Translations under genes and position numbers: made by a program | In this document: positions 38,243 to 55,452 of the stretch, piece by piece | How positions within the stretch are numbered: position 1 is the first letter of the stretch | Layout: every line of letters begins with the position of its first letter | Notes under the pieces: model-generated | The model's input: the letters and a program-made list of their open reading frames with translations, nothing else | Told to the model about the DNA's origin: nothing | The model's database searches: none | Assembly (NCBI GenBank): GCA_963705085.1 | Contig: CAVPIV010000004.1 | Coordinates: forward strand, 181,028 to 245,027 | Origin: an uncultured Thermoleophilia bacterium | Lineage (GTDB): Bacteria; Actinomycetota; Thermoleophilia; UBA2241 | Reading direction: 5' to 3' | Length of the DNA stretch: 64,000 nucleotides

Positions 38243-38458
38243 AGCCGCTCCGGGAGCCGCGTCACGGCACACACTCGCGACCAGTCTATCCCTTCTCGCC
38301 GTGATGCAGGGCCGCCGGGCAGCTCCGGGCGTCCGGCACCCTCGGCCACGTGTCAGCATCGGCAACGCCTGTACCTTCGGATGGCCGCAGCCACGGCCGA
38401 TACAGCCATCGCGGGTGGCGATCGTTCCGCCGCGCGGTGATCCGAGACTGGAGGGGCC

Positions 38459-40654
38459 ATGAGGAGCTGTGCCGGCACACATCCATCTGTTCGTCTTTTC
38501 CTATGGTCTGCCGGCCTCCTGCTCGCACTCCTGCTCGCTTCCGCGCTCGCCGCGCCGACGGCGCGGGCGGCGAGCATGCAGCCAGTCGCAGCGCCGCTGA
38601 GCGCCGAGTTCGTCGAGTACCAGAAGCAGCGGGGACTCGAGCGCGTCATGGGTCTCGAGCGCGCGCCTTGGGCCCGTCCCGGCGTCACGCCGGCGCCGAT
38701 GGACCCGCCATCCTCGACCGGCGGGATATCCGCCAGAGTTCGCGTGGCCTTCCCGAGCTCTTTCGACCTGCGCACCGGCGGCAGGGTGTCGCCCGTCAAG
38801 AACCAGAACCCGTACGGGACCTGCTGGACCTTTGCGACCTTCGCGTCCGCGGAGTCCTGTCTTCTGCCGGGAGAGCTGCGCGACTTCTCCGAGGACAACC
38901 TGGCCCTCAACGCCGGCTTCGACACGGGCGGCGATCCCTATGATCACGGCGGTAACTACTCCATGTCGACGGCGTACCTCATCCGTTGGGGCGGACCGGT
39001 CGACGAGACGCAGGACGCCTACGGCGACTCGTCTACGCCTTCCGGCTTGTCCGCCGGCAAGCACGCGCAGGAGGTGCTCTACGTGCCCGGCGGCGGCGCC
39101 TCCGATACCGCCGCCATCAAGGACGCCCTGATGACGTACGGCGCCGTCGCCACCTCGATCCGCTGGGAGAGCTCCTCGTACAAGAGCTCGACGGCGGGCT
39201 TCTACTACAGTGGCAGTGGTTCCACCAATCACGCCGTGACCATAGTGGGCTGGGACGACGCCTATCCCGCGGCGAGCTTCGCGACGTCTCCGGCCGGCGA
39301 CGGCGCCTGGCTGGTCAAGAACAGCTGGGGTCCGGGCTGGGGACAGGGTGGCTACTTCTGGGTCTCCTACCACGACCGCCACTGCGCCACGGACAACGTG
39401 TTCAACGCTGTCTACTGCGGTCTGGCTCCTGCATCCAACTACGGCACCGTCTACTACCATGATCCGCTGGGCGAGGTGGGCACGGTAGGCTACAACAGCA
39501 CCACCGCCTGGGCCGCCAACGTCTTCACCGCCGTCGATGCCGAGCCGATCACCGCGGTGGGCTTCTTCACGCCCGTCGCGGGCACGACCTACACTGTCTA
39601 TGCCGGCGGCTCACTCGCCGCCCTTCAGGCAAAGGGCTCGGGGTCCTTCTCGACTCCGGGCTACCACACCGTTCAGCTTTCGTCGCCGCTCGCCGTGAGC
39701 GCCGCGTCGTCGTTCGTCGCCGCCGTACGCCTCACCACCCCTGGCCTCAACTACCCTGTGGCCTACGAAGCGGTGGTGGGGGGCTACAGCTCGTCGGCCA
39801 CATCGGCGCCGGGGCAGAGCTTCATCAGCCGGGACGGCTCCTCCTGGTCGGACATCACTGGGTGGAACGCCACGGCCAACGTCTGCCTCAAGGCCTACAG
39901 TGCGGTTGCGGGCACCGTCCCGACACCGACGCCCACGCCCACACCGACCCCCACCCCGACGCCGACGCCCACCCCGACGCCGACGCCCACCCCGACGCCC
40001 ACCCCGACGCCGACGCCCACCCCGACGCCGACGCCGACGCCCACGCCCACCCCGACGCCCACGCCGACCCCGACGCCGACGCCGGGTGACGACCTGGAGG
40101 CGCCCGAGACCGAGGCGCACGGTTGGGACGACGGCTGGCACCGGCAGCCGGTTCGGGTGACGTTCGTGGCGGTCGACCAAGGGGAGCCGGCCAGCGGCGT
40201 CGCCTACACCGAGTACGCCGTCGGCGACGGCGACTGGGTGCGGGGCGCCGAGGTCGTGATCTCCCGCAGTGGCGAGTCCACGGTGTGGTATCGGTCTGTT
40301 GACAGGGCCGGCAACGTCGAGGGAGCGCGGAGCTGCGAGGTCAAGGTCGACGCGGTCGGGCCGAAGTGCACGGCGAAGTCGGTGACGGTGAGCCGCGGCG
40401 GCGTCGCCAGGGTCAGGTTCTCGGTCGCCGACAGCGTCAGTCCGTCGGTGCGCTTCACGGCCAAGATCAAGACGGGCTCGGGTGCGGTCAAGAAGAGCAT
40501 CTCCTCCGACGGCTGGCAGGACGCGGGCTTCTGGTGGCAGTGGACGTTCCGTTGCACGCTGCCGAAGGGCAAGTACCAGATCCGTATCTACGCCACCGAT
40601 CTGGCGGGCAACGCCCAGAGCGCGCTCGGGACTGGGACGCTGACGGTGAAGTAG
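38459..40654 (+). CDS. Secreted papain-family (C1A) cysteine protease with lectin-like domain, PT linker and two Ig-like C-terminal domains
   Basis: Signal peptide; KNQNPYGTCWTF (catalytic C), NHAVTIVGWDD (H) and VKNSWG (N). Confidence 0.92.
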   Translation: MRSCAGTHPSVRLFLWSAGLLLALLLASALAAPTARAASMQPVAAPLSAEFVEYQKQRGLERVMGLERAPWARPGVTPAPMDPPSSTGGISARVRVAFPSSFDLRTGGRVSPVKNQNPYGTCWTFATFASAESCLLPGELRDFSEDNLALNAGFDTGGDPYDHGGNYSMSTAYLIRWGGPVDETQDAYGDSSTPSGLSAGKHAQEVLYVPGGGASDTAAIKDALMTYGAVATSIRWESSSYKSSTAGFYYSGSGSTNHAVTIVGWDDAYPAASFATSPAGDGAWLVKNSWGPGWGQGGYFWVSYHDRHCATDNVFNAVYCGLAPASNYGTVYYHDPLGEVGTVGYNSTTAWAANVFTAVDAEPITAVGFFTPVAGTTYTVYAGGSLAALQAKGSGSFSTPGYHTVQLSSPLAVSAASSFVAAVRLTTPGLNYPVAYEAVVGGYSSSATSAPGQSFISRDGSSWSDITGWNATANVCLKAYSAVAGTVPTPTPTPTPTPTPTPTPTPTPTPTPTPTPTPTPTPTPTPTPTPTPTPTPTPTPTPGDDLEAPETEAHGWDDGWHRQPVRVTFVAVDQGEPASGVAYTEYAVGDGDWVRGAEVVISRSGESTVWYRSVDRAGNVEGARSCEVKVDAVGPKCTAKSVTVSRGGVARVRFSVADSVSPSVRFTAKIKTGSGAVKKSISSDGWQDAGFWWQWTFRCTLPKGKYQIRIYATDLAGNAQSALGTGTLTVK
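39920..40084 (+). repeat. (Pro-Thr)27 linker microsatellite
   Basis: 55 codons of CCG/CCC-ACG/ACC/ACA. Confidence 0.95.
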
Positions 40655-40660
40655 AAGGCT

Positions 40661-40712
40661 CGGGGGCCGGTGTGAGCGGGCGACGAACGTCGCAGGCTCA
40701 CACCGGCCCCCG
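40661..40712 (+). terminator. Long hairpin after protease gene
   Basis: 17-bp arms CGGGGGCCGGTGTGAGC / GCTCACACCGGCCCCCG with nested GCGACG-AA-CGTCGC. Confidence 0.65.
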
Positions 40713-40789
40713 CTTGTCTCCCGGATCGGCGCCTGGCCTGCGGCGCGGTGGGGAGTGGGGTAAGCTCCCGCCGAGTGAAGGGAGCCGCC

Positions 40790-42142
40790 GTGCCGTCAGT
40801 GAGCCGCAGCGTCGACGCCCTCGTCGCCGAGATCGGATCGACGATCACCGTCGTTTCGGCGTTCGAGGGGCTGGCCGAGTATCCCGCGGCGCCGCCGCGG
40901 CTGCTCGGCCAGGGCGTCGCCGTGACGTCGGTCGCCGACGGCGACGTGACGATCGGGCTGGCGGCCGCCCGGGCGCAGCTCGAGGCGGCCGTCGGACGTC
41001 TCGTTCCCGCGCTCACGCTGGCGACCAGCTCGGCCGCCGGCGGGTTGCGCATGACCGTCCATGGCCTCACCCAGCGAATGACGGCGATGGCGGCGCGGGA
41101 GGCGGCGCTCGGCGCCGGCGCGGTCGTGAAGTACGTGACCGCCGGCAAGTTGCGCGGCGCCGACCTGCAACGGATAGACGAGGTGCGGCCGAGCCTCATC
41201 CTGCTCGCCGGCGGTGTCGAGGGCGGCGACTCCGACACGGTCTTGTACAACGCCGGCCGTCTGGCGGAGCTGGCGACCCGGCCGATCGTCGTCTACGGCG
41301 GCAACTCCCTGGTCGCGGCCGAGGCGCGCGCGCGTCTCGAGGCGGCCGGCTTTCGGGTACGGGTCACGAGCAATGTGTACCCCGGTGTCGACGAGCTCGA
41401 CGTCGTCCCGGCGCGGGCCGTCATCCACGACGCCTTCGAGGAGCACATCACGCACGCTCCCGGCATGGAGCGGATTCGCGAGTCCGTGGGCGGGAGCATC
41501 CTGCCGACGCCCGGGGCCGTGCTGCTTGCCGCCGAGCGTCTCGCCCAAGACTTGGGCGATCTCGTCGTCGTCGACGTCGGCGGCGCCACGACCGACGTCC
41601 ACTCGGTGACCGACGGCAGCCCGGATTACGCCGCCCTGCAGATCGAGCCGCAGCCACACGCCAGACGCAGCGTCGAGGGCGACCTCGGTACCTATGTGAG
41701 CGCCGAGCATGTCGCCGCCATGCTGGACGCCGGCCGCCGGCCGAAGGTGTTGCCGCCGGCTCTGCCGGTGACCGACGAGGAGATCGCGGCGGCGCTCGCG
41801 CTGGCACGTCACGCCGCCGTCACTGCCATGCAGCGTCACGCCGGCCGGCTCGTCTCGTTCTATACACCCACCGGCCGGACGACGGTCGTCCGGGGCCGCG
41901 ACCTCACCGCCTGCCGGCTGGTGATCGGCACCGGGGGCGCGCTCACGCGACTCCCCGGCGGCGAGGGGATCCTCGCCGCCATGCTCGGAGGAGGCGGCGG
42001 CGAGCTGCTCCTGCCGCCGAAGGACGCGCGCTGCCTGCTCGATCGCGACTACGTCTTCGCCTGCTGCGGCGCGCTGCTCGGGCACGTCCCGGACGGCGCG
42101 GTGGTCGCGCTCTTGCGCGCCAGTCTGGGTCTCTGCTACTGA
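40790..42142 (+). CDS. GlmL/MutL-like reactivating factor of B12 ornithine aminomutase (OraF-like)
   Basis: LVAEIGSTITVV, TSSAAGGLRMTVHGL, LLAGGVEGG, ILPTPGAV, VVVDVGGATTDVHSV and RSVEGDLG (ASKHA fold, GlmL signature). Confidence 0.85.
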   Translation: MPSVSRSVDALVAEIGSTITVVSAFEGLAEYPAAPPRLLGQGVAVTSVADGDVTIGLAAARAQLEAAVGRLVPALTLATSSAAGGLRMTVHGLTQRMTAMAAREAALGAGAVVKYVTAGKLRGADLQRIDEVRPSLILLAGGVEGGDSDTVLYNAGRLAELATRPIVVYGGNSLVAAEARARLEAAGFRVRVTSNVYPGVDELDVVPARAVIHDAFEEHITHAPGMERIRESVGGSILPTPGAVLLAAERLAQDLGDLVVVDVGGATTDVHSVTDGSPDYAALQIEPQPHARRSVEGDLGTYVSAEHVAAMLDAGRRPKVLPPALPVTDEEIAAALALARHAAVTAMQRHAGRLVSFYTPTGRTTVVRGRDLTACRLVIGTGGALTRLPGGEGILAAMLGGGGGELLLPPKDARCLLDRDYVFACCGALLGHVPDGAVVALLRASLGLCY

Positions 42143-42175
42143 ACGTCCACCTTCGGCCCCCGTCAGTTCTCGACT

Positions 42176-44254
42176 ATGCTTGATCCAGTGGGCTCCTGCG
42201 GGGACAAGCGTGCCGTCACGCGCGGTGTCGCGCGAGGGCTCGTTGTCGCCCTCGCGACGGCCGCGCTCTGCGTGATCCCGAGCGTGGCCGCTGCCGTTCC
42301 GCCCAGCCCGGCCCTGCTCGAGCGCGCGGCGCGCGATGAGGCCCTCGCCGCGCGCGTCGCGGCCTATGAAGAGCACGCGCGGTCGCGTGGCATCGACGCG
42401 CCGGCGCGGCCGGCCACCGTGGCCGCGCGCGACGCCCGCGGGGTGCTGCGTCTTCGCACCAAGAAGGTGGCGCCGGCCGCCGGCGAGCTCAAGACGCTGG
42501 CGCTGCTCGTCGACTTCTCCGATCGCGCACACATCGTCTCGGCACCATGGTTCGACGGCCTCCTGTTCGCCGACGTTCTCGGCCCGTCGAGTTTGCGCGG
42601 CTACTTTCGGGAGGTGTCGTACGGCAGTGCGACGGGCCCCGGCCTGCTGGACGTGGTGACCGACGATCCACCGTCGTCGGTCGGCGGCTGGCTACGCCTG
42701 CCGGGCACGCTGGCCTCGTATGTCGCGGGCGGCGACAACGGCACAGGCTCGTACCCCGGCAACGCCCAGAAGATGGTTGAGGACGCCGTGGCGGCGGCCG
42801 ATCCGTGGGTCGACTTCAGCGCCTACGACAACAACGGCGACGGCTTCGTCGAGAACCTCATCGTCGTCCACGCCGGCCGCGGCGCGGAGTACACGGGCAG
42901 TGCCGCCGACCTGTGGTCGCATCAGTGGGAGACGTCGCAACCCGTTGCTGTCGACGGCGTGTTCGTCTCGGACTACTCCACGGAGCCCGAGTACTGGCGG
43001 ACCGCGGGCGACATGACGATCGGGGTATTCGCGCACGAGATCGGTCACGTCCTCGGGCTGCCCGATCTGTACGATCGCGACTTCTCCAGTGCCGGGGTCG
43101 GCGCGTGGAGCCTGATGGGCGCCGGCAGCTGGAACGGCGATAACGGCGACTCGCCGGCGCGCCTGGACGCCTGGTGCTCGTCGCGGCTCGGCTGGCTGCA
43201 ACCGCAGACGGTCAGCGGGACGCCGACCGCACGCGGTCTGGCGCCGGTTGGCGACTCGCGCACGGCGAGCGCGATCAAGCTCTACCCCTCCGGTGCGACC
43301 GGCGGCCTGGAGTACTTCCTCGTGGAGAATCGGCAGAAGACCGGGACGGACGCCGGCCTGCCCGGTGGCGGCCTGCTTGTCTGGCACGTCGATGAAACGC
43401 GGATCGGCGTCGACCACCGCAACGATGACGAGACGCACAAGCTGGTCGACCTGGAGGAGGCGGGCGGGGCACAGGATCTCGACTTCCCGTTCAGCGTGGG
43501 TTCGGCCGACGATCCCTTCCCGGGATCGACCGGGGCGCGGGCGTTCCTGGACACGACGCGCCCGGACGCTCGCACGTACGCCGGACGGGCGTCGGGCGTC
43601 GTGGTCGACGAGATCGGCGCCGACGGCGCCGTCATGACGGCGCGCTTTGGCGCCGTGGAGCCGGCCGACGGCACCGCGCCGACCGTGCGGGTCGTCGGAG
43701 CGAGGAGCGGCGGGCACTACCGCCGCGACACGACCCTCACGGTCGTGGCCGTGGACCAGCCGGGAGGATCCGGCGTCGGCCTGGTGACCTACGGCCTCGA
43801 CGGCGGCCCGCTCCAGGCCGTCGAGGGGGGCAGGGCCGACATCGTGATTCCGGCGGTGCCGAACGCGTTTCACGTACTGGTCTTCTCGGCCGTCGATCGC
43901 GTGGGGAACAGTGCGCCCGTGCGGCGCTTCACGCTCACGACCGACACGAAGGGGCCGGTCGGGGCCGGCCGCTCCGTGAGCGGCAGGCGGGGCCGGCCGA
44001 TTGCCATTCCGTACAGGCTGAGCGACACGCTGAGCGCCAGGGTCTGGGACGTGCGCGTCGTCGTCACGCGGCCGTCGGGGGCGATCGCGCGGACGTTCAA
44101 GCTGGGTCCCACCGCGTCCCGCCGGAGTGGCACGTTCTACTCCTTCACCTGGCGTCCAACCGCCAGCGGCGCCTACGTCTACCGGGTTTACGGACGGGAC
44201 ACGGCCGGCAATCCGCAGAGCGTCAAGGGCCGTGGCCTCGTCACCGTACGCTGA
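42176..44254 (+). CDS. Secreted M6 (immune inhibitor A-like) metalloprotease with Ig-like C-terminal domains
   Basis: LLVDFSD, IVVHAGRGAE, GVFAHEIGHVLGLPDLYD (HExxH), WSLMGAGSW and YFLVENR. Confidence 0.9.
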   Translation: MLDPVGSCGDKRAVTRGVARGLVVALATAALCVIPSVAAAVPPSPALLERAARDEALAARVAAYEEHARSRGIDAPARPATVAARDARGVLRLRTKKVAPAAGELKTLALLVDFSDRAHIVSAPWFDGLLFADVLGPSSLRGYFREVSYGSATGPGLLDVVTDDPPSSVGGWLRLPGTLASYVAGGDNGTGSYPGNAQKMVEDAVAAADPWVDFSAYDNNGDGFVENLIVVHAGRGAEYTGSAADLWSHQWETSQPVAVDGVFVSDYSTEPEYWRTAGDMTIGVFAHEIGHVLGLPDLYDRDFSSAGVGAWSLMGAGSWNGDNGDSPARLDAWCSSRLGWLQPQTVSGTPTARGLAPVGDSRTASAIKLYPSGATGGLEYFLVENRQKTGTDAGLPGGGLLVWHVDETRIGVDHRNDDETHKLVDLEEAGGAQDLDFPFSVGSADDPFPGSTGARAFLDTTRPDARTYAGRASGVVVDEIGADGAVMTARFGAVEPADGTAPTVRVVGARSGGHYRRDTTLTVVAVDQPGGSGVGLVTYGLDGGPLQAVEGGRADIVIPAVPNAFHVLVFSAVDRVGNSAPVRRFTLTTDTKGPVGAGRSVSGRRGRPIAIPYRLSDTLSARVWDVRVVVTRPSGAIARTFKLGPTASRRSGTFYSFTWRPTASGAYVYRVYGRDTAGNPQSVKGRGLVTVR

Positions 44255-44277
44255 GCGCCGCCGGCGGGCGGGCGATC

Positions 44278-47200
44278 GTGAGCACGGTGTCTGACGAGCG
44301 CGGCAGGGTGGAGCCGCATCCGGCGCTGGCGCCGTTCGCGCCGCGGGTCCGGGACTGGTTCACGGCGGCGTTCCGGGCCCCGACGCCCGCGCAGGTTCAG
44401 GCGTGGCCGGCGATCGCCGCGGGCGGGCACGCCCTCATCTCGGCGCCGACCGGCTCGGGCAAGACGCTCGCCGCGTTCCTGTGGGCGCTCGATCGCCTGG
44501 TGGCCGAGCCCCCCGCCGGCGACCGCGAGCGGGGCCGGCTCCGGCTCGTGTACGTGTCGCCCCTCAAGGCGCTCGGCTACGACGTTCAGAGAAACCTGAG
44601 GGCGCCGCTGCGCGGCATTGGAGCCGATCTGCGGGTGGCGACCCGCACCGGCGACACGCCCGCCCGTGAGCGCCGGGCGATGCTGCGCACGCCGCCCGAC
44701 ATCCTCATCACGACCCCGGAGTCCCTCTACCTCATGCTCACCTCCCAGGCTCGCGAGCTGTTCGCCGGCGCGGAGTGGGTGATCGTCGACGAGATCCACG
44801 CCGTCGCCCAGACGAAGCGCGGCGCGCATCTCGCCGTGAGCCTGGAGCGACTCGCCGAGCAGGCGGGTCGCGACGTGCAACGCATCGGTCTCTCCGCGAC
44901 CCAGCGGCCGCTGGACGAGGTCGCGCGCTTCCTCGTCGGGCCTCACCGCGACTGCGCCATCGTCGACGCCGGCGTGCGCAAGCCGCTCGACCTGCGCATC
45001 CAGGTGCCCGTTGAGTCGATGGCGGAGCCCGAGGTCCCGGTCGAGCTCGCCAGCTTGCCGGGCGGGGAGGCGACGCGGCGCTCGATCTGGCCGGCGGTCT
45101 ACCCGGAACTGCTGCGCCTCGTGCGCGAGCATCGCTCGACGCTCGTCTTCGTGAACAACCGCCGCGCCGCCGAGCGCATCGCCCTGCGGCTCAACGACCT
45201 CGCCGGGCGCGATGACGCCGGGCACCGGGTCTCCTCGCCCGCGGGCGAGATCGCCCGGGCGCATCACGGCTCGCTGGCCCGCGAGGAGCGCCAGGCGATC
45301 GAGGAGCAGCTCAAGGAGGGCCGGCTGCCGTGTCTCGTGGCGACGTCGTCGCTCGAGCTCGGCATCGACATGGGCGCCATTGACCTGGTCGTGCAGATCG
45401 AGTCTCCCAAGTCGGTGGCGCGCGGGCTGCAGCGCATCGGCCGCGCCGGGCACGGCGTCGGCGAGGTCTCGCGCGGGAGGATCTTCCCCAAGTTCCGGGC
45501 CGACCTGCTCGAGTGCGCCGTCGTCGCGAGGCGCATGCGCGAGGGACAGATCGAGACGACCGTGGTGCCGCGCAACCCGCTCGACGTGCTCGCGCAACAG
45601 GTCGTGGCCATGGCCGCAACGGCCGGCGACAAAGGACTCCCGGCCGCCGACGTCTTCGCTCTGTTGCGGCGCACGTGGACGTTCGCCGAGCTGCAGCGCC
45701 GCCAGTTCGACAACGTGCTCGACATGCTCGACGGGCGCTACCCGTCGCACGAGTTCGCGGAGCTGCGGGCGCGGATCGTGTGGGACAGGGTCGCCGACAC
45801 GATCCGCGCCCGGCCCGGCGCCCTCGCCTTGGCCGTGGCCAACGCGGGCACCATACCCGACCGCGGCCTCTTCTCGGTCAACCTGCCGGACGGGCGTCGG
45901 GTGGGGGAGCTCGACGAGGAGATGGTCTACGAGGCCCGGGTCGGCCAGGCCTTCCTGCTCGGCGCCACGTCGTGGCGGATCGAGGAGATCACGCGTGACC
46001 GGGTTGTCGTCTCGCCTGCCCCGGGCGCGTCCGCCGCGGTTCCGTTCTGGCACGGCGAGTCCGTCGGGCGGCCGATGGAGCTCGGCGAGGCGATCGGCGC
46101 CTTCGCCCGCTGGGCCGTCGGTCAGGACGAAGACGTGCTCCGGCGCGAGTACGACCTCGACGAGCGCGCCGCCCGCAACCTGCTCGCCTACCTGCGCGAG
46201 CAGCAGGCGGCGACGCGCGTCGTGCCTTCGGATCGCGCCGTCGTCGTCGAGCGCTTTCGCGACGAGGTCGGCGACTGGCGGCTCTGCCTGCTGACGCCCT
46301 TCGGCGGCCAGGTGCATGCCGCATGGGCCCTGGCGCTGAGCGCCCGGGTGCGCGCCCGCCTGGGGCAGGAGGCCGAGGCGATCTGGTCGGACGACGGCAT
46401 CATCCTGCACCTGCCCGACGCCGACGATCCCCCGGCCGGGGACCTGGTTCTTCTGGAACCGGACGAGGCCGAGGACCTGCTCGTCGGCGAGCTCGGCGGC
46501 AGCGCTCTCTTCGGCGCGCGCTTCCGCGAGAACGCGGCCCGCGCCCTGCTCATCCCGAGGGCCCGTCCTGGCCGTCGCACGCCGCTCTGGCAGCAACGGC
46601 TCAAGGCCCAGGCGCTGCTCGCCGTGGCGCGGCGGTATCCGGAGTTCCCGATCGTGCTCGAAACCTACCGGGAGTGCTTGTGCGACGTGCTCGATCTGCC
46701 GGGGCTGCGGGAGGTCCTGCGTCGACTGAGCACGCGCGAGATCGGGGTTGTCGAGGTCGAGACGGCGGCGGCCTCGCCGTTCGCCTCCTCGCTGCTCTTC
46801 GACTACGTGGCCACGTACATGTACGAGGGCGACGCGCCGAGGGCCGAACGCCGGGCCCTCGCCCTCGCCCTGGACCGCGACCTGCTGCGCGAGCTTCTCG
46901 GTCAGGAGGAGCTGCGCGACCTCATCGCTCCGGCCGCGCTGGCCGCGGTCGAGGACGAGCTGCAGTGCCGTGCGGACCACCGCAGGGCACGTGATGCCGA
47001 CGGCCTCCACGACGTCCTCCGCCGGCTCGGCGACCTGACCGAGGAGGAGGCCCTCGAGCGCGTGAGCGAGCCGGCCGCGGCGCGGGGGTGGCTTGCCGAG
47101 CTGGAGGGCGAGCGTCGAGCCGCGCCGGTCAGAATCGCCGGCGTGGAGCGCTGGATCGCCGCTGAGGACGCCGGCCTCTACCGCGACGCGCTGGGCGCGA

Positions 47201-48786
47201 TCCCGCCGGCCGAACTGCCGCAGACCTTCCTGGCCGGCGTCCCGAACGCGCTGCTGACGGTGTTGAGGCGCTACGCGCGCACGCACGGTCCGTTCGAGGG
47301 CGACGACGTGCGGCGCCGGTGGGGCGTGGACGCGAGCGCCGCCCTCACGCTGCTGGAGCAGGCCGGGGAGCTTGTCCGCGGCGAGCTGCGCCCGCTCGGC
47401 ACCGAGCGCGAGTGGTGCGACCCGGAGGTGCTGCGCCGCCTGCGACGCGCCTCGCTGGCGGCCTTGCGCCGGGAGATCGAGCCGGTCTCCTCCGAGGCAC
47501 TGGCGCGCTTCGCGCCGGCGTGGCAGGGAGTCGGCGGACCGGCGGTGAGAGGGTCGGCAATGGCCGGCTCTGCTCAGGCTGGTCCCGGTGTCGACCGGCT
47601 TCGCGACGTCCTGGTGCCGCTCCAGGGTCTGCCCCTGCCGGTCGGAGTCTGGGAGCGCGACGTGCTGCCGTCGCGTGTCGGGGCGTACTCGCCGGCCTGG
47701 CTCGACGAGCTCTGCGCGAGCGGAGAGGTGGTTTGGGCCGGCGTGGGCGCATCGGGAGACCGGGCTGGCCGGGTGGCGCTGTACTTCCGGGAGGACGCGG
47801 CGCTCCTCGGTCTCCCGCCCGCGACCGGTGAGGCTCCCCGGGGCGAGGTGCACGGGCTCCTGCGGGAGCGCCTGGGGCGCGGGGCCTGCTTCTTCGCTGA
47901 TCTGCTCGTGGAGTACCCGGAGGCGCCGCCCGACGAGCTGCGGGACGCTCTCTGGGACCTGGTCTGGGCCTCCGAGGCGACCAACGACGCCTTCGCCCCG
48001 CTGCGCGCCGCGGCACCCGGCCGTAGCTCCGCGGCGCCGAGGGGACATCGTGGATCCGTTGCGCGATCGCCCGGGGGAACGGGCGCCGGACGCTTCCAGC
48101 GCCGGGGGAGGGGGGCGCCGCCGCTGCAGGGGCGCTGGTCTCTCACGGCGGCCGTGTTCGGCGCCGCGGCGCCCGAGGCCGAGGGCCGGCGTCGCGCCTG
48201 GGCCGAGCTGCTGCTCGAGCGGCACGGCATCGTCACGCGCGAGCTCGTGCGGGCGGAGCGCGCCGCGGGCGGCTTCGCCGCCCTCTATCCGGCGCTCTCC
48301 GCCCTCGAGACGATCGGCAAGGCGCGCCGCGGCTACTTCGTGGAGGGCCTTGGCGGCGCCCAGTTCGCGCTGCCGGGCGCGGTCGAGCGGCTGCGCGCCG
48401 AGGCTGACACTCCGGGCCTTGCGCTGGTCCTCGCGGCCGCCGATCCCGCACAGCTCTACGGCGCGGCGCTGCGCTGGCCGGACGCGGGCGGTCGCGCCCC
48501 GGCGCGTCGCGCCGGGGCCTACGTGGTGCTCGTCGGCGGCCGTCCTGTGCTCGGCCTCGAGTCCGGCGGGCACAGCATGGCGGTCTTCCCGGGGGAGTCC
48601 GCCGAGACGCTGGACGCCGCGTTCGCGGCGCTCGCGGGGGCGGTCGCGGAGGGCCGTGTGCCGCGCCTCGCGCTCGAGCGCATCGACGGTGCGGCGGCCA
48701 CGGAGTCGCCCTACGCCGGGCGCCTCCAGGAGCTCGGCTTCCGGGCTGGCCTGCGGCGCCTCAGTTTCGCGCGGCGCTACGCCTGA
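44278..48786 (+). CDS. lhr: Lhr-family DEAD/DEAH helicase (full length)
   Basis: APTGSGKT, YVSPLKAL, VIVDEIHAV, GLSAT, HHGSL, ATSSLELGID and QRIGRAGH; C-terminal winged-helix/HTH_42 region. Confidence 0.95.
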   Translation: MSTVSDERGRVEPHPALAPFAPRVRDWFTAAFRAPTPAQVQAWPAIAAGGHALISAPTGSGKTLAAFLWALDRLVAEPPAGDRERGRLRLVYVSPLKALGYDVQRNLRAPLRGIGADLRVATRTGDTPARERRAMLRTPPDILITTPESLYLMLTSQARELFAGAEWVIVDEIHAVAQTKRGAHLAVSLERLAEQAGRDVQRIGLSATQRPLDEVARFLVGPHRDCAIVDAGVRKPLDLRIQVPVESMAEPEVPVELASLPGGEATRRSIWPAVYPELLRLVREHRSTLVFVNNRRAAERIALRLNDLAGRDDAGHRVSSPAGEIARAHHGSLAREERQAIEEQLKEGRLPCLVATSSLELGIDMGAIDLVVQIESPKSVARGLQRIGRAGHGVGEVSRGRIFPKFRADLLECAVVARRMREGQIETTVVPRNPLDVLAQQVVAMAATAGDKGLPAADVFALLRRTWTFAELQRRQFDNVLDMLDGRYPSHEFAELRARIVWDRVADTIRARPGALALAVANAGTIPDRGLFSVNLPDGRRVGELDEEMVYEARVGQAFLLGATSWRIEEITRDRVVVSPAPGASAAVPFWHGESVGRPMELGEAIGAFARWAVGQDEDVLRREYDLDERAARNLLAYLREQQAATRVVPSDRAVVVERFRDEVGDWRLCLLTPFGGQVHAAWALALSARVRARLGQEAEAIWSDDGIILHLPDADDPPAGDLVLLEPDEAEDLLVGELGGSALFGARFRENAARALLIPRARPGRRTPLWQQRLKAQALLAVARRYPEFPIVLETYRECLCDVLDLPGLREVLRRLSTREIGVVEVETAAASPFASSLLFDYVATYMYEGDAPRAERRALALALDRDLLRELLGQEELRDLIAPAALAAVEDELQCRADHRRARDADGLHDVLRRLGDLTEEEALERVSEPAAARGWLAELEGERRAAPVRIAGVERWIAAEDAGLYRDALGAIPPAELPQTFLAGVPNALLTVLRRYARTHGPFEGDDVRRRWGVDASAALTLLEQAGELVRGELRPLGTEREWCDPEVLRRLRRASLAALRREIEPVSSEALARFAPAWQGVGGPAVRGSAMAGSAQAGPGVDRLRDVLVPLQGLPLPVGVWERDVLPSRVGAYSPAWLDELCASGEVVWAGVGASGDRAGRVALYFREDAALLGLPPATGEAPRGEVHGLLRERLGRGACFFADLLVEYPEAPPDELRDALWDLVWASEATNDAFAPLRAAAPGRSSAAPRGHRGSVARSPGGTGAGRFQRRGRGAPPLQGRWSLTAAVFGAAAPEAEGRRRAWAELLLERHGIVTRELVRAERAAGGFAALYPALSALETIGKARRGYFVEGLGGAQFALPGAVERLRAEADTPGLALVLAAADPAQLYGAALRWPDAGGRAPARRAGAYVVLVGGRPVLGLESGGHSMAVFPGESAETLDAAFAALAGAVAEGRVPRLALERIDGAAATESPYAGRLQELGFRAGLRRLSFARRYA

Positions 48787-48822
48787 CGTCGCCCCGGACG
48801 CCGCGTGCGCGCCGCCGCGTCG

Positions 48823-49797
48823 TCAGCCGTTGAGCGTGATCGCCTCAGGAGCGCAGGTGCGCAGGCAGTGCCCGCAGAGGCGGCAGGCGTCGGGGTTCTG
48901 GACGACGGCCTTGCCGCCGTTCAACGTGAACACTCCGTAGGGGCAGACCTGGACGCAGTTGCCGCACCCCGTGCAGGCGTCCGCGTCGACGACGACAGGA
49001 GCGGCAGCCGACGACCCGTCGCCCGACGACTGGCCACCGGCGTCGCCGCTCGAGGAGCCGTCGTCGGCGGACCCGTTGGAGGTGGTGCTGCCGCCATCGC
49101 CGCTGCTCAGCAGGCCGCAGCCGGCGAAGAAGGCGGCGGCCCCGACGACGCCGGCCGCCGCCAGGAAGCCCTTGCGCGAGAAGCGGGGAGGGCCGGCCTC
49201 GGAGGGAGGGCCGAACTCGGACGCGTCTCCGACGCGCCGGCAGGCGTCCGGCTCGGCCGCCCGTCCGCAGGCCGCCACGGACTGCGCGCCGCTCTCGGCC
49301 TGCGGCGGCTTGAGAGCGGCTCGCCGCGACTCGGCCTGCCCCCCAAGGTTGCGCGCGCTCGCCTCGACGCCGCGCGCCTCGCGACGCGCCCGTCGCCCAT
49401 CGCCCATCGCCGCGAGGCGAGCCAGGGAGTCCGAGGCGCTCGCGGGTGCCGCGGCCGTGACGGCGGCCGGAACCGGGCTCACGGCTGGCACGCGTGCCCG
49501 GGCTGGGCGGCTCTGGCCGTGGCGGCGCTTGCCGCGGACCACTTTGCCGGTCATCGAGACGAGCCACCGCAGGTGCAGCGCCGTGTGAAGGCCCACGCCC
49601 GCGGCCATGACAGCGCCGCTCCAGTCGTGGACCGTCTGCCAGACGGCAGTGCTGATGCCGAGGATGACGGGCTGGCCGGCGGCGGACACGCTCACAGTGG
49701 TTTCTGGGAAGAGGCGGAAGAGCCCGGTCACGGCGCAGAACAGAAAGGCGATGCCGGTGATCATGTCGACCCAGTAGTTGACCATCGCCTTCTTCAT
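48823..49797 (-). CDS. DUF4405 membrane domain fused to a 2[4Fe-4S] ferredoxin
   Basis: VNYWVD...WQTVHDWSG...GLHTALHLRW; CTGCGNCVQVCP and CRLCGHCLRTCAP. Confidence 0.75.
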   Translation of the reverse strand: MKKAMVNYWVDMITGIAFLFCAVTGLFRLFPETTVSVSAAGQPVILGISTAVWQTVHDWSGAVMAAGVGLHTALHLRWLVSMTGKVVRGKRRHGQSRPARARVPAVSPVPAAVTAAAPASASDSLARLAAMGDGRRARREARGVEASARNLGGQAESRRAALKPPQAESGAQSVAACGRAAEPDACRRVGDASEFGPPSEAGPPRFSRKGFLAAAGVVGAAAFFAGCGLLSSGDGGSTTSNGSADDGSSSGDAGGQSSGDGSSAAAPVVVDADACTGCGNCVQVCPYGVFTLNGGKAVVQNPDACRLCGHCLRTCAPEAITLNG

Positions 49798-50095
49798 CGC
49801 ATACCTCGTGTCCGTCGTGGGTTGTCGGCGGCGGGACGATCGGCAGTCTCGACCTGCGCAGGCGGGCCTCTTCCGGCTCCAGGCCAGCATGATAGGCGGG
49901 CTCCCTGTGACCTCGCTGAGAGGACGCTGAGGTTTTGTGCCGGATGAGGAGGGCGCATGGCGCCCATTTGCTCGTGCACAGTCCAAGCCGCGCGTAATGC
50001 AAGAGGATCGACCGGCCGACGATAGAATGGATTCAGGACGGCAACCTCGGCGCGCCGTCGGCACGGCGACTCTCACCCTGAGGCAGGGAGGACGG

Positions 50096-51868
50096 ATGAA
50101 AAGGTATTCCCGGAGGAGCGCCGTCGTGCTGGCGCTGGCGACGGCGCTGCTCGCGTGTCTGGTCGCCGCGCCCCTGGCGGTGGCGAGCGCGGCGGCAGAT
50201 CCGCCGATCCAGGCGGCGCCGCTGAGCGAGGCGTTCCGGCAGTACCAGGCGCAACAGCGTCTGCAGCGGGCGCTGGGCCTGAACGGCGTCGTTCAGCCCA
50301 ACCTGGGCATGATCCCTGAGCCGATGGATCCCTCGATCCTCAAGGGCACGGCCGGCACGGCACGGGTACGCTCGGTCGTCCCGCCCGTCGCCTACGACCT
50401 GCGGTCTCTGGGCAAGCTGACGCCCGTCAGGGACCAGAACCCGTTCGGCACCTGCTGGACGTTCGCCTCGCTCGCCTCGCTCGAGTCGTGCCTCCTGCCC
50501 GCCGAGGCGCGCGACTTCTCCGAGGATCACATGACGCTGACGTCGGGCTTCGACGACGGCGGCGACCCCTACAACGAGGGCGGCAACTACTACATGGCGA
50601 CCGCCTACTTGGCGCGCTGGGGCGGCCCCGTCGACGAGACGGACGACGCCTACGGCGACGGCTTCACGCCGCCGGGACTCAGTCCCGACAAGCACGTGCA
50701 GGAGGTCCTCTACATCCCCGGCGGCGACATCGCCGCCGACACGAAGGCCATCAAGACCGCGATCATGACCTACGGTGCGGTGGCGACGTCGCTGTACTGG
50801 ACGAACAGCGCCTACGACGAGAGCGAGAACAGCTATTACTACTTCGGCCTGGCGAGCATCGATCACGCCGTGACCATCGTCGGTTGGGACGACACCTTCT
50901 CCGCCACGCGCTTCGGTCTCATGCCTCCCGGCAACGGCGCCTGGCTCGTGCGCAACAGCTGGGGGACCGAGTGGGGCGACGGCGGCTACTTCTGGGTGTC
51001 CTACTGGGACGCCCATTGTGGCCGCGACAACGTCTTCAACGCCGTCTACCCCAACGCCGAACCGACGACCAACCACGACACGATCTACTACCACGACCCG
51101 CTGGGCCAGGTCGACACGCTGGGCTACGGCGATGAGACGGCCTGGGGGGCGAACGTCTACACGGCGACCGCCAGCCAGGCGGTCACGGCGGTCGGCTTCT
51201 TCACGCACGTGCCGGGCACCACCTACTCCGTGTACACGGGCGGTGTGACGGGCGGCGGCGCACCGGGGACCTTGACGAAGAAGGCGTCGGGCACGATCAA
51301 CACCGCCGGCTACCACACCGTCAGGCTCTCCTCGCCGCGAGGCGTCGTCCGCGGCGGCAAGTTCGCGGTGGCCGTCAAGCTCAGGACCCCCGGCCTCGAC
51401 TACCCGATCGCCTACGAGGGGTATGTTGCGGACTTCAGCTCGGGGGCGACGGCCTCGCCGCGGCAGAGCTACATGCGGCACACCGACGCAAGCCTGTGGC
51501 TGGACCTGACCCGCTACGATCCCACGGGCAACGTGTGTCTCAAGGCGTACGCGGACGACGATACCCAGGCGCCGACGAGTACGGTCGCGGCGCCGGCCTC
51601 AGTAGGGCGGTACGCCAGGGTCACGCTCAGGTTCCGGGTGAACGACCCGCAGCCGAGCTGCGGCTCCGCCGCGGTCAGGATCCAGATCCTGAAGGGGGCT
51701 TCGGTCGTCAGGACGATCACCGTCGGGACGAAGGGGACGAATACGACCGCCGGCTACATCTGGACGGCGACCCTCGGCAAGGGCGTCTACACGTGGCGGG
51801 TGTCGGCCATCGATCTGGCGGGCTATCCGGCAGCCGCGATGGTGCCTGCGGCGCTGGTCATCAGGTAG
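50096..51868 (+). CDS. Second secreted C1A cysteine protease with lectin-like domain
   Basis: RDQNPFGTCWTF, DHAVTIVGWDD and VRNSWG; paralog of 38459-40654. Confidence 0.92.
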   Translation: MKRYSRRSAVVLALATALLACLVAAPLAVASAAADPPIQAAPLSEAFRQYQAQQRLQRALGLNGVVQPNLGMIPEPMDPSILKGTAGTARVRSVVPPVAYDLRSLGKLTPVRDQNPFGTCWTFASLASLESCLLPAEARDFSEDHMTLTSGFDDGGDPYNEGGNYYMATAYLARWGGPVDETDDAYGDGFTPPGLSPDKHVQEVLYIPGGDIAADTKAIKTAIMTYGAVATSLYWTNSAYDESENSYYYFGLASIDHAVTIVGWDDTFSATRFGLMPPGNGAWLVRNSWGTEWGDGGYFWVSYWDAHCGRDNVFNAVYPNAEPTTNHDTIYYHDPLGQVDTLGYGDETAWGANVYTATASQAVTAVGFFTHVPGTTYSVYTGGVTGGGAPGTLTKKASGTINTAGYHTVRLSSPRGVVRGGKFAVAVKLRTPGLDYPIAYEGYVADFSSGATASPRQSYMRHTDASLWLDLTRYDPTGNVCLKAYADDDTQAPTSTVAAPASVGRYARVTLRFRVNDPQPSCGSAAVRIQILKGASVVRTITVGTKGTNTTAGYIWTATLGKGVYTWRVSAIDLAGYPAAAMVPAALVIR

Positions 51869-51987: not shown

Positions 51988-53088
51988 ATGCTCGCGAACC
52001 CGACAGTCACTGTTGATCTCGGCAAGATCGAGGCCAACACCCGCACGGTCGTCGAGCAGCTTCCCGGAATCGAAGTCGTCGGCGTCGTCAAGGCCACCTC
52101 GGGCAGCCCGGAGGTGGGCAACGCGATGCTGGCGGGCGGGGCGGTGGCCCTTGGCGAGTCGCGGCTCGAGAACATCAAACGGCTTCGCGACGGGGGCCTG
52201 ACGGCGCCGATCTGGCTGTTGCGGGCGCCGGTGCCGGCGCTCGCCGACGAGGCCGTGCGCTATACCGATGTTTCGCTGGAGAGCGAGCTCACGATCGTGC
52301 GCGCCCTCGAGGAGGCGGGAGCCCGGCAGCGGCGCCGTCATGGCATCGTGGCCATGGTCGACCTGGGCGATCTGCGCGAGGGGATGATGCCGGCCGAGCT
52401 GCCGGCGTTCGTCGACGAGGTCGAGCGCCTGACGCACGTGGAGCTCATGGGCATCGGCGTCAACCTGACGTGCTATGGCGAGATCATCCCGGACGATCGC
52501 AACCTCGGGCAGCTCGCCGCCCTGGCGGCCCAGACCGAGCGTCAGATCGGCCGCCGGCTGCGGTACGTCTCGGGCGGCAACTCGAGCTCGATCGCGATGG
52601 TCCTCGAGGGGCGCATGCCGCCCGCCATCAACTCGCTGCGCGTCGGCGAGACCATCCTGCTGGGCGTCGAGACGATCCACCGGCAGCCGGCGATGGGCCT
52701 CTTCCTGGACGCCATCACGCTCGCGGCCCCCGTGATCGAGTGCAAGCGCAAGCCCTCGCTGCCGATCGGCACCCAGGGTCAGGACGCCTTCGGCAACACC
52801 TCGGTCTTCGAGGATCGCGGGCAGCGACGCCGCGCGATCCTCGCTCTCGGCCGCCAGGACGTCTCGCCGGAGGGCCTGCGCCCCGTCGACCCGCGCATCG
52901 AGGTCCTCGGCGGCTCCAGCGACCACATGATCCTCGACGTCGAGGACCTCAACGCGTGCCTCACCCTGGGCGATACGGTGACCTTCATCCCGAACTACGC
53001 CGCCACCCTGCAGCTCTTCACCTCGTCGTACGTGGACAAGGTGTACGCGACGCCGCAGGCGGCGCCCATCTCAGCCCGTCCGGAATGA
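51988..53088 (+). CDS. orr: Ornithine racemase (PLP, alanine-racemase fold)
   Basis: GVVK (PLP lysine), MVDLGDLREG, GVNLTCYG, SGGNSSS, KPSLPIG..G.DAFG and GGSSDH match clostridial Orr. Confidence 0.85.
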   Translation: MLANPTVTVDLGKIEANTRTVVEQLPGIEVVGVVKATSGSPEVGNAMLAGGAVALGESRLENIKRLRDGGLTAPIWLLRAPVPALADEAVRYTDVSLESELTIVRALEEAGARQRRRHGIVAMVDLGDLREGMMPAELPAFVDEVERLTHVELMGIGVNLTCYGEIIPDDRNLGQLAALAAQTERQIGRRLRYVSGGNSSSIAMVLEGRMPPAINSLRVGETILLGVETIHRQPAMGLFLDAITLAAPVIECKRKPSLPIGTQGQDAFGNTSVFEDRGQRRRAILALGRQDVSPEGLRPVDPRIEVLGGSSDHMILDVEDLNACLTLGDTVTFIPNYAATLQLFTSSYVDKVYATPQAAPISARPE

Positions 53089-54489: not shown

Positions 54490-55452
54490 ATGCCTGAGCG
54501 CTTCTATACTCGCATCACGGAGCTGGACCTCACCGGCCGCAGCTTCCTCACGATCCACGATTTCTCGTCGGCCGAGATCATGGCCCTCCTGGGTCTTGCC
54601 CGCGACCTCAAGGCTGCCCAGAAGAACCGCGAATCAGTGCACATGCTGCCTGGCCGCGCCGTGGCCCTCGTCTTCATGAAGACCTCGACGCGCACCCGCA
54701 TGAGCTTCGAGGTCGGCGTCCAGCAGCTCGGCGCGCAGCCCATCTTCCTCAACGCCAACGACATCCAGCTGCGCGTCGGCGAGACGATCAAGGACACCGC
54801 CAACGTGATGAGCCGCTACGTCGACTGCATCATGATCCGCACCTTCGCCCAGCAGGACGTCGAGGACCTGGCCGCCTACGGCCAGATCCCGGTCATCAAC
54901 GGCCTCACCGACGACCATCACCCCTGCCAGGGCATGGCCGACGCCCTCACCGTGCGCGAGCACTGCGGGGACCTGCAGGGCCGCACCCTCGTCTACACGG
55001 GCGACGGCAACAACGTGCTCACCTCGCTCATGGAGGTCGGCGCCAAGACGGGCATGAACGTCATCGCCTGCACGCCGCCGGACTACAAGCCCGCCGAGTG
55101 GGCGATCACCCGCGCCCGGGAGGACGCCCGGGAGAGCGGCGCCAGCATCGAGTGGACGAGCAACCTGCGCGCCGCCGTCAAGGGCGCCGACGTGATCTAC
55201 ACCGACACCTTCACGAGCATGGGCAAGGAGGCCGAACACGACCAGCGCCTGCAGGCCCTGCGCGACTACCAGGTCAACATGGACCTCGTCCGGCACGCCG
55301 GGCCGCAGGTCAAGGTCATGCACTGCCTGCCGGCCCACTGGGGCGAGGAGATCACCGAAGAGGTGCTCTACTCGCCCAACTCGATCGTCTTCGACCAGGC
55401 CGAGAACCGGCTGCACGCCCAGAAGGCGATCATGGCGGCGATCATCGACTGA
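54490..55452 (+). CDS. arcB: Ornithine carbamoyltransferase
   Basis: FMKTSTRTR, HPCQ, GDGNNV, DTFTSMG, MHCLP and AENRLH. Confidence 0.92.
   Translation: MPERFYTRITELDLTGRSFLTIHDFSSAEIMALLGLARDLKAAQKNRESVHMLPGRAVALVFMKTSTRTRMSFEVGVQQLGAQPIFLNANDIQLRVGETIKDTANVMSRYVDCIMIRTFAQQDVEDLAAYGQIPVINGLTDDHHPCQGMADALTVREHCGDLQGRTLVYTGDGNNVLTSLMEVGAKTGMNVIACTPPDYKPAEWAITRAREDARESGASIEWTSNLRAAVKGADVIYTDTFTSMGKEAEHDQRLQALRDYQVNMDLVRHAGPQVKVMHCLPAHWGEEITEEVLYSPNSIVFDQAENRLHAQKAIMAAIID

Follow-up and report, generated by a model that had tools for sequence, protein, structure and literature searches.

A stretch of 64,000 nucleotides from an uncultured Thermoleophilia bacterium (GenBank assembly GCA_963705085.1, contig CAVPIV010000004.1, positions 181,028 to 245,027; hereafter the window) encodes three secreted proteases of two unrelated families, all of which end in the same basic domain of about 100 residues. 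Two of them, designated C1A-1 and C1A-2, have a Peptidase_C1 domain, and the third is an M6 metalloprotease. We find that the common tail is a divergent immunoglobulin (Ig)-like domain of the Big_13 superfamily and that, together with its relatives, it makes up a terminal cationic subfamily recognizable by homology, fold, position, charge, diversity of cargo, shuffling and taxonomic restriction. We infer that the ligand of the tail is most likely a polymer of the cell envelope and its function most likely retention.

A common basic domain ends three secreted proteases

The three proteins can be aligned over the whole of their last 101–103 residues, and 14 positions of this alignment are invariant. 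Single BLASTP comparisons gave E-values of 4e-11 for C1A-1 versus M6, 6e-06 for C1A-1 versus C1A-2 and 3e-04 for M6 versus C1A-2. When the six-frame translation of the window was searched with a hidden Markov model (HMM) of the three tails, a fourth copy was not found, the next best match having E = 0.86. Lysine and arginine outnumber aspartate and glutamate by 15 to 5 in the tail of C1A-1, by 19 to 3 in that of M6 and by 11 to 3 in that of C1A-2. The isoelectric point (pI) is 4.74–4.76 outside the tail in all three proteins, compared with 10.2–11.9 for the tails themselves, and the tails are outliers for C-terminal charge among the open reading frames (ORFs) of the window that are supported by codon bias.

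The three proteins differ in what precedes the tail. C1A-1 consists of a signal peptide (residues 1-37), a Peptidase_C1 domain (99-312; Pfam E = 5.8e-26), a Lectin_like domain (331-481; 1.8e-42), a (TP)33 linker (483-548), an OmpL47-type domain (567-630) and the tail (631-731). The linker lies after the Lectin_like domain and the enzyme head and before the C-terminal cassette, and an analogous TP-rich linker occupies the same place, ahead of the cassette, in the M10 protein P0117. The M6 protein has a signal peptide, the M6 domain (110-404), a weak OmpL47-type domain (518-587) and the basic tail (590-692). C1A-2 has a signal peptide, Peptidase_C1, Lectin_like and the basic tail, and lacks both the linker and the OmpL47-type domain. 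The OmpL47-type domain (NF047446) is found just upstream of the tail in C1A-1 (67.4 bits, above the curated cutoff of 40) and in M6 (26.5 bits, under that cutoff), not in C1A-2.

All three proteins begin with a Sec-type signal peptide, as judged by inspection of the sequences and a hydrophobicity scan. The signal peptide of C1A-2 includes the sequence SRRSAV, which loosely resembles a twin-arginine translocation (Tat) motif. A lipoprotein anchor was considered and rejected on inspection: the cysteines that C1A-2 and M6 have in their signal peptides are outside any lipobox. Neither an LPXTG motif nor a C-terminal transmembrane segment was found in the three proteins by regular expressions and a hydrophobicity scan, which detected only the N-terminal signal peptides, and a Pfam search of the three gave no SLH match.

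An initial annotation of this DNA had described three proteases of two families with one terminal domain of about 100 residues, rich in arginine and lysine, sharing a sequence motif and lacking an LPXTG, SLH or transmembrane anchor. The alignment, in which the motif is present in all three tails, the BLASTP comparisons, the individual pI values (Table 1) and the Pfam, regular-expression and hydrophobicity scans all bear this out. The ORFs are also as described there, with the exception of the start of C1A-2. The longest ORF begins at 49937 and is 53 codons too long (49937-50095). We place the true start at the ATG at 50096 because it has a GGAGGA site and because the resulting 590-aa product is identical to the database protein P0038.

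Table 1. Positions in the window of the three protease genes, of their C-terminal parts and of nearby genes of amino-acid catabolism
Feature	Position	Strand	Description and basis
C1A-1 gene	38459..40654	+	731 aa; ORF list, Pfam, NCBIfam
Thr-Pro repeat linker, C1A-1	39905..40102	+	~33 TP units, 66 aa, almost perfect; translation
OmpL47-type beta-barrel/Ig domain, C1A-1	40157..40348	+	NF047446, E = 1.1e-18; residues 567-630; adjoins tail
Basic Ig-like tail, C1A-1	40349..40654	+	101 aa + stop; net +10; pI 10.2
M6 metalloprotease gene	42176..44254	+	692 aa; TIGR03296, E = 7.9e-61; Pfam Peptidase_M6, E = 1.1e-18
Basic Ig-like tail, M6	43943..44254	+	103 aa + stop; net +16; pI 11.9
C1A-2 gene, corrected start	50096..51868	+	590 aa; ATG with GGAGGA ribosome-binding site
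Basic Ig-like tail, C1A-2	51560..51868	+	102 aa + stop; net +8; pI 11.0
Amino-acid catabolism genes	40748-42142, 51988-53088, 54490-55452, 57277-58815, 58812-60134	+	

The tail is a divergent Big_13 domain

Big_13 (PF19077) is the best Pfam match of all three tails, at scores under the gathering score of 27 bits (24.6 bits for the tail of C1A-1, 15.5 for that of M6 and 14.4 for that of C1A-2 alone). Relatives of the tail pass this score (P0117, 32.9 bits; P0143, 36.9; P0136, 50). Big_13 was matched at E <= 1e-4 in 17 of the 43 proteins of the subfamily, and many carry a precomputed PF19077 assignment. The membership of the tail in Big_13 is thus based on transitive homology, since the copies in the window are below threshold and their relatives are above it.

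Searches with profiles of the tail led to the same superfamily. The best sequence match in the Protein Data Bank (PDB) was to the BIg repeats of Salmonella SiiE (2yn3, E = 2e-06). Against 1.84 billion representative proteins, the profile of the three tails gave 5,097 matches at E <= 1e-3, of which 1,272 reached E <= 1e-10. Those at the top were proteins 2,000-7,500 aa long that were matched in as many as 49 stretches, their repeats being internal and in tandem; P0014, P0032, P0044 and P0047 each have 7-9 full-length internal matches and contain arrays of Big_13 and Big_7 according to Pfam. Because the profile matches internal repeats in giant proteins, the fold of the tail is that of a generic bacterial Ig repeat.

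Structure prediction by AlphaFold2 gave an eight-stranded beta-sandwich for the tail of C1A-1, with a predicted local distance difference test (pLDDT) score of 95.9, and eight strands in the same order for the tail of C1A-2 (pLDDT 87.5). The models were built with an alignment of 50 sequences taken from a protein search with 42 tails, which returned 64 matches, all under 200 aa; the version with three tails gave four short fragments. Using Foldseek against the PDB, we obtained only generic Ig-like matches for both models (E ~1e-3, TM-score 0.5-0.67), including RbmA, antibody and T-cell receptor V domains, CARDB, the Y_Y_Y domain of BT4663 and a porphyran-binding carbohydrate-binding module (CBM). 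We conclude that the tail is a divergent Ig-like beta-sandwich of the Big_13 type and no new fold.

The tail shares with Big_13 and the SiiE BIg repeats a homologous sequence, the motif G-x-Y...V-x-A-x-D-x-A-G-N and the Ig-like beta-sandwich. The difference lies in how the domain is used. In its classical form, Big_13 is an acidic stalk repeat of giant adhesins, internal and in tandem, whereas the tail subfamily is single-copy, last in the protein, strongly basic and found on enzymes. The tails in the window do not have the usual tandem internal context, there being one terminal copy per protein; context is no formal criterion for membership in Pfam Big_13. In the literature searched, Big_13 appears only as a stalk repeat of periscope proteins and of adhesins of the type I secretion system, and no description of a terminal basic Big_13 domain was found. 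No tail-specific model exists in Pfam or NCBIfam, and the names given to the tails in the sources are only ‘Ig-like domain-containing protein’ or ‘hypothetical protein’.

Terminal members form a cationic and lineage-restricted subfamily

The subfamily was surveyed in one genome per GTDB species, using an alignment of four tails, and 40 full-length loci were obtained from 30 assemblies. The genomes were scanned with only two peptide patterns, so that the number of copies in a genome is a minimum; the highest are at least six in one metagenome-assembled genome (MAG) and three within the 64 kb of the window. In these loci, the distance from the end of the tail to the stop codon is 0-1 residues for all 45 full-length tails. 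Internal matches in the loci were only weak and partial, as in archaeal, Brevinematales and similar loci. In the search of representative proteins, a single full-length match ending at the last residue was seen in P0038, P0078, P0117, P0125, P0136, P0138 and P0143, of which P0038 is C1A-2 itself and P0078 is 77% identical to the M6 protein.

Charge distinguishes the terminal domains from the internal ones. All 45 tails are basic, with a net charge of +4 to +27 (mean +14), and the parts upstream of them have a mean of -2.7 per 100 aa. By comparison, 250 internal repeats of the superfamily from 56 giant proteins have a mean of -7.2 per 100 aa and a maximum of +8. An HMM of the subfamily gave no internal repeat more than 31.8 bits (median 15.8), while terminal members outside the training set scored at least 57.1 bits in the loci, and the relatives of the C1A proteins at least 38.5 bits. 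The terminal subfamily is sharply separated from the internal Big_13 repeats. Lysine or arginine is conserved at alignment columns 15, 16, 23, 25, 39, 41, 49 and 73 and is the last residue in 37 of 42 aligned tails (88%), the usual ending being L-x-V-K/R.

The host genomes are all uncultured. Apart from one Desulfobacterales, the assemblies (29/30) are labelled Thermoleophilia, Actinomycetes, Actinomycetota or Actinobacteria, and the genome of the window has been found in freshwater, sediment and wetland metagenomes. The Desulfobacterales MAG (L005, 51.6% GC) carries a full-length terminal tail, the only member outside Actinomycetota, which could have arisen by horizontal transfer or mis-binning. 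A MAG labelled ‘Actinobacteria’ with 41% GC (L031) has a full-length terminal tail that is Lys-rich and has a net charge of +27. An origin of the charge as an arginine artefact of high-GC coding was considered and rejected, low-GC members being Lys-rich and even more basic. Since the member at 41% GC maintains +27 by means of lysine, the charge of the tail is selected and is no by-product of Arg-rich coding.

These results also bear on the nature of the domain as first proposed. The initial annotation took it to be undescribed; homology to Big_13 and the internal repeats make its fold that of a generic Ig repeat instead. Internal matches across many phyla, which had been named as the sign of such a repeat, occur for the superfamily (the 5,097 proteins above) and do not occur for the terminal subfamily. 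At the level of the subfamily, the expectation that the domain is always C-terminal and restricted to a lineage agrees with the positions and genome labels just given. As to the further expectation of a signal peptide, a simple heuristic detected a signal-peptide-like N-terminus in 36 of the 45 ORFs, and most of the other nine are truncated or fragmented.

The tail is carried by diverse proteins and moves as part of a cassette

Among 43 tail-bearing proteins, the peptidases belong to the C1, M6, M10, S8 and C11 families. The non-peptidase cargo comprises TIG (12 proteins), FG-GAP, RCC1, BNR, NHL and beta-helix proteins, including propellers. Choice-of-anchor Z repeats (CoaZ_rpt_PGGG, NF058597) occur in 14 of the 43 and choice_anch_Q (NF041518) in one. 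As the name ‘choice-of-anchor’ implies, the C-terminal anchor differs from lineage to lineage among the members of such a family; the two models describe the cargo and not the tail. Other cargo domains match families named for relatives that are sorted by LPXTG, by PEP-CTERM or by a secretion system of type IX (T9SS). Such a cargo is typical of anchored surface proteomes. Tail-bearing TIG and choice-of-anchor Z genes form tandem arrays of paralogues in Thermoleophilia MAGs (L010:2-4285, with three consecutive genes, L013, L023 and L004).

The tail is often accompanied by the same neighbour within the protein. An OmpL47-type domain lies directly upstream of it in 33 of the 43 proteins (E <= 1e-4). 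The linker, OmpL47-type domain and tail of C1A-1 are 59% identical to those of P0117, and because these two proteins are otherwise unrelated we conclude that the cassette moves as a unit.

The converse comparison, in which the catalytic part is held constant, was made with the 118 closest relatives of the C1A and lectin-like region. Seventy carry the tail at the exact C-terminus; its net charge is +6 to +27 in all but one, where it is -1. In about 15 the protein ends directly behind the lectin-like domain with no extension, from which it follows that C1A catalysis is independent of the tail. About nine others end in a different basic Ig-like domain, either of a TIG type with the ending FTVKR or FRVRR (P0265, P0287, P0289, P0312 and P0271) or of a ‘GAYRxRA’ type with the ending FKVK (P0256, P0282, P0309 and P0331). 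In the last 100 aa of these proteins the net charge is +7 to +27, and the alternative domains likewise finish with hydrophobic-x-V-K/R. This result suggests convergence, with selection for charge and not for one fold. A bacterial pre-peptidase C-terminal (PPC) domain (PF04151) is also present in some homologues.

Proposed electrostatic retention at the cell surface and alternative roles

The explanation that we favour, with moderate confidence, is that the tail is a non-covalent, electrostatic module that retains exported proteins at the cell surface. N-terminal signal peptides would export the tail-bearing proteins, and the folded beta-sandwich would then expose lysine and arginine at conserved strand positions that face the solvent, as well as at the final residue. 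In this form the tail may bind anionic polymers of the envelope non-covalently and mainly by charge. Candidate ligands are a teichoic-acid-like or other acidic glycopolymer of the wall, or an S-layer; nothing on an S-layer of Thermoleophilia was found in the literature searched. The acidic enzyme or adhesin body would thereby be kept at the surface and would not diffuse away, with the OmpL47-type Ig domain (in many members) and the (TP)33 linker (in C1A-1) serving as a putative stalk between anchor and head. The reading is based on the combination of a signal peptide, an acidic head, a stalk and a compact cationic terminal domain. A physico-chemical role is favoured over binding to a specific receptor because other basic Ig-like folds replace the tail on orthologous proteases.

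GW modules and other cationic anchors of Gram-positive surface proteins are likewise basic and C-terminal, and they attach secreted proteins to anionic polymers of the wall or to lipoteichoic polymers; GW modules differ from the tail in having an SH3-like fold, in being usually repeated and in belonging to another lineage, and no homology to the tail was detected. The nearest functional precedent would be the SlpA domain of the Lactobacillus proteases PrtB, PrtL and PrtH, a Lys-rich C-terminal domain of 114-136 aa with a pI above 10 that replaces LPXTG, and for PrtL electrostatic attachment to the wall has been shown (PMC10535647). Both the SlpA domain and the tail are C-terminal modules of ~100-136 aa on secreted proteases that have a pI above 10, are poor in acidic residues and take the place of an LPXTG anchor; the tails have pI values of 10.2, 11.9 and 11.0 and three to five acidic residues per ~100 aa. 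The SlpA domain follows a low-complexity spacer, a further likeness to the tail proteins. It is, however, a bipartite repeat of unrelated sequence and fold from Bacillota, whereas the tail is a single Ig sandwich, and no SLAP-type family was among the Pfam matches of the tails. Binding to the wall is established for PrtL and proposed by us for the tail.

The tail lies outside the families of the T9SS C-terminal domain (CTD), FlgD_ig, SLAP, SLH and LPXTG. With respect to FlgD, no tail of the window matched PF13860 (FlgD Ig-like) at E <= 10. The NCBIfam model PRK06655 (FlgD) gave a weak match to the tail of C1A-1 (E = 0.066), and PF13860 is a precomputed assignment on two fragments of the subfamily, P0174 and P0195.

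Several observations weigh against retention at the surface. The Foldseek matches are non-specific, and the structure gives no pointer to a wall ligand. Nine of the 45 ORFs showed no signal peptide by the heuristic, most of these being cut by the end of a contig or fragmented to <300 aa. In the C1A family, P0302 has a tail with a net charge of -1. The exact end at the last strand with a terminal lysine or arginine is stricter than binding by charge needs, and the free C-terminus could itself be recognized. Finally, anionic substrates or matrices outside the cell could just as well be the ligands of a cationic beta-sandwich.

The last point is the basis of the strongest alternative, which we regard as possible and clearly less probable than retention. 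The tail would be a generic Ig-like binding or spacer module for external anionic material and not for the surface of its own cell, in a role like that of the PKD, CBM or Ig domains with which many secreted hydrolases are equipped; the targets proposed are acidic polysaccharides, extracellular DNA, surfaces of humic matter or clay, and acidic protein substrates. Membership of Big_13, a superfamily widely used as an adhesin repeat, is in keeping with such a role, and the best TM-score in Foldseek (0.67) was that of the porphyran-binding CBM (8wae), porphyran being an anionic sulfated galactan. The sediment and wetland habitats of the hosts are rich in anionic surfaces, and the genes of amino-acid catabolism close to the proteases suggest the scavenging of protein. 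However, the tail is also found on non-enzymatic TIG and CoaZ proteins and on propellers, for which one common substrate is implausible. In addition, it is strictly terminal in 115 of 115 cases, whereas substrate-binding modules typically occur at either end or internally.

The strict C-terminus could also be understood if the tail were a true sorting signal, comparable to the CTD of T9SS cargo and read by a dedicated machine that translocates, cleaves or covalently attaches the cargo; we consider this unlikely. In RgpB, a T9SS cargo, an Ig domain is followed by a terminal Ig-like CTD with a final lysine, and the last residues are essential for secretion (PMC4804311). The architecture of the tail proteins is RgpB-like in that a Sec signal peptide precedes a cysteine-protease head, which is followed by an Ig domain and a terminal Ig-like sandwich. 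Like type A CTDs of T9SS, the tail is a terminal Ig-like sandwich of the ~80-100-aa class, follows an Ig domain, is carried by Sec-exported proteases and adhesins and has a lysine-ended last strand. The invariable end at the stop codon, the terminal lysine or arginine in 37 of 42 tails, the diversity of cargo and the choice-of-anchor families would all fit. Put specifically, the basic terminal Ig domain might be the cargo tag of an undescribed sorting or attachment system of uncultured Thermoleophilia, with recognition of the last strand and the free C-terminal lysine or arginine, and would then be the equivalent in function of the T9SS CTD for an actinobacterial envelope, a proposal that we consider equally doubtful.

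The resemblance to T9SS cargo is confined to this architecture, an Ig-like sandwich at the extreme C-terminus of a protein with a Sec signal peptide. The T9SS CTD has seven strands and the tail eight, with no detectable similarity in sequence and no specific similarity in structure. Cleavage of the CTD and linkage of the cargo to anionic LPS are further traits of T9SS. No tail matched TIGR04183 or PF18962 (Pfam at E <= 10; NCBIfam at E <= 1 and at E <= 10). The comparison of predicted structures with FlgD and the T9SS CTD, as suggested in the initial annotation, returned an Ig-like sandwich, but neither a T9SS CTD nor a FlgD structure was among the top 50 Foldseek matches of either model. According to PMC10202324 and PMC5445135, T9SS is confined to Bacteroidota; the hosts of the tail are labelled Actinomycetota, and no machinery genes were seen nearby. 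Neighbour clustering showed no conserved gene within ~4 kb across about 45 loci apart from local synteny with SelD-like and SelA genes, and nothing resembling machinery was conserved at the tail loci, to which this search was limited, no whole-genome search for T9SS having been made. The replacement of the tail by other basic terminal Ig folds on orthologous proteases likewise fits a physico-chemical role better than a lock-and-key one.

A role within its own protein, as a folding chaperone, stabilizer or autoinhibitor that pairs with the acidic body and might be removed at maturation as PPC domains are, would be consistent with the split in charge (tail pI 10-12 versus body pI 4.7) and with the PPC domains of some homologues, but is very improbable: the tail is found on many unrelated bodies that are not proteases, is separated from the head in C1A-1 by the 66-aa TP linker and a second Ig domain, is missing from the ~15 otherwise similar C1A homologues, and is accompanied and not replaced by PPC domains.

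Gene neighbourhood and other features of the window

The synteny with selenocysteine genes is seen in six loci, where the tail genes adjoin a SelD-like gene and SelA. The next neighbour clusters were an ArsR regulator, a GGDEF protein and an ABC ATPase, each in three loci. The largest cluster was dismissed, as it consisted of antisense ORF artefacts inside the tail genes.

In the window, a MutL-type gene and a gene for an Lhr helicase lie between the three protease genes. The genes flanking the proteases code for a MutL-type protein (PF13941), a pyridoxal phosphate enzyme similar to Ala_racemase_N, an ornithine/aspartate carbamoyltransferase, an aromatic amino-acid (histidine-type) ammonia-lyase and an amidohydrolase. 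These neighbours in amino-acid catabolism suggest a protein-scavenging lifestyle. Between the Lhr gene and C1A-2, an ORF on the reverse strand (48823-50076) encodes membrane segments of the DUF4405 or cytochrome-b type and a C-terminal 4Fe-4S dicluster domain; it overlaps the over-extended ORF of C1A-2. Another reverse-strand ORF (44188-48573, 1461 aa) is antisense to the Lhr helicase and fails a test of GC content by codon position. The very long antisense ORFs in the window are high-GC artefacts.

Two further features were observed on the reverse strand upstream of C1A-1. A MalT-like regulator (AAA_16 and TPR_MalT) is split between overlapping ORFs in different frames (35722-36783 and 36608-38482), TPR_MalT positions 1-77 ending the first and positions 81-335 falling in the second; the split represents a frameshift, a pseudogene or else an error in the assembly. 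The ORF at 25397-31006 codes for a secreted protein of 1869 aa with five Flg_new (Listeria-Bacteroides) repeats and an fn3-like region. This protein is very acidic, with a net charge of about -100, and is without the basic tail; it ends in ...TYDFTCRIIKGN, apparently a different terminal beta domain.

Implications

The fold described here is not new in itself, and we have no evidence of a T9SS-like machine; on both points the first reading of this DNA is corrected. What we describe is instead a known Ig fold that has become specialized, within a restricted lineage, as a cationic terminal module that probably serves as an anchor. At present, databases label the tails only as ‘Ig-like domain’ or Big_13, or give no label, and a dedicated model of the subfamily would separate them cleanly from internal repeats (31.8 versus 38.5 bits). 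The tail is small and predicted to be well folded (pLDDT 96), and might serve as a tag for display or immobilization.

If the tail does retain proteins at the surface, the few cationic wall anchors that act non-covalently would gain a member with an Ig fold. The tail would then also mark the exposed proteome of a group of uncultured actinobacteria that is widespread in sediment, wetland and soil. That exposed set would consist of proteases, adhesin-like TIG and CoaZ proteins and propellers, and a single HMM could predict the surface proteins of these organisms.

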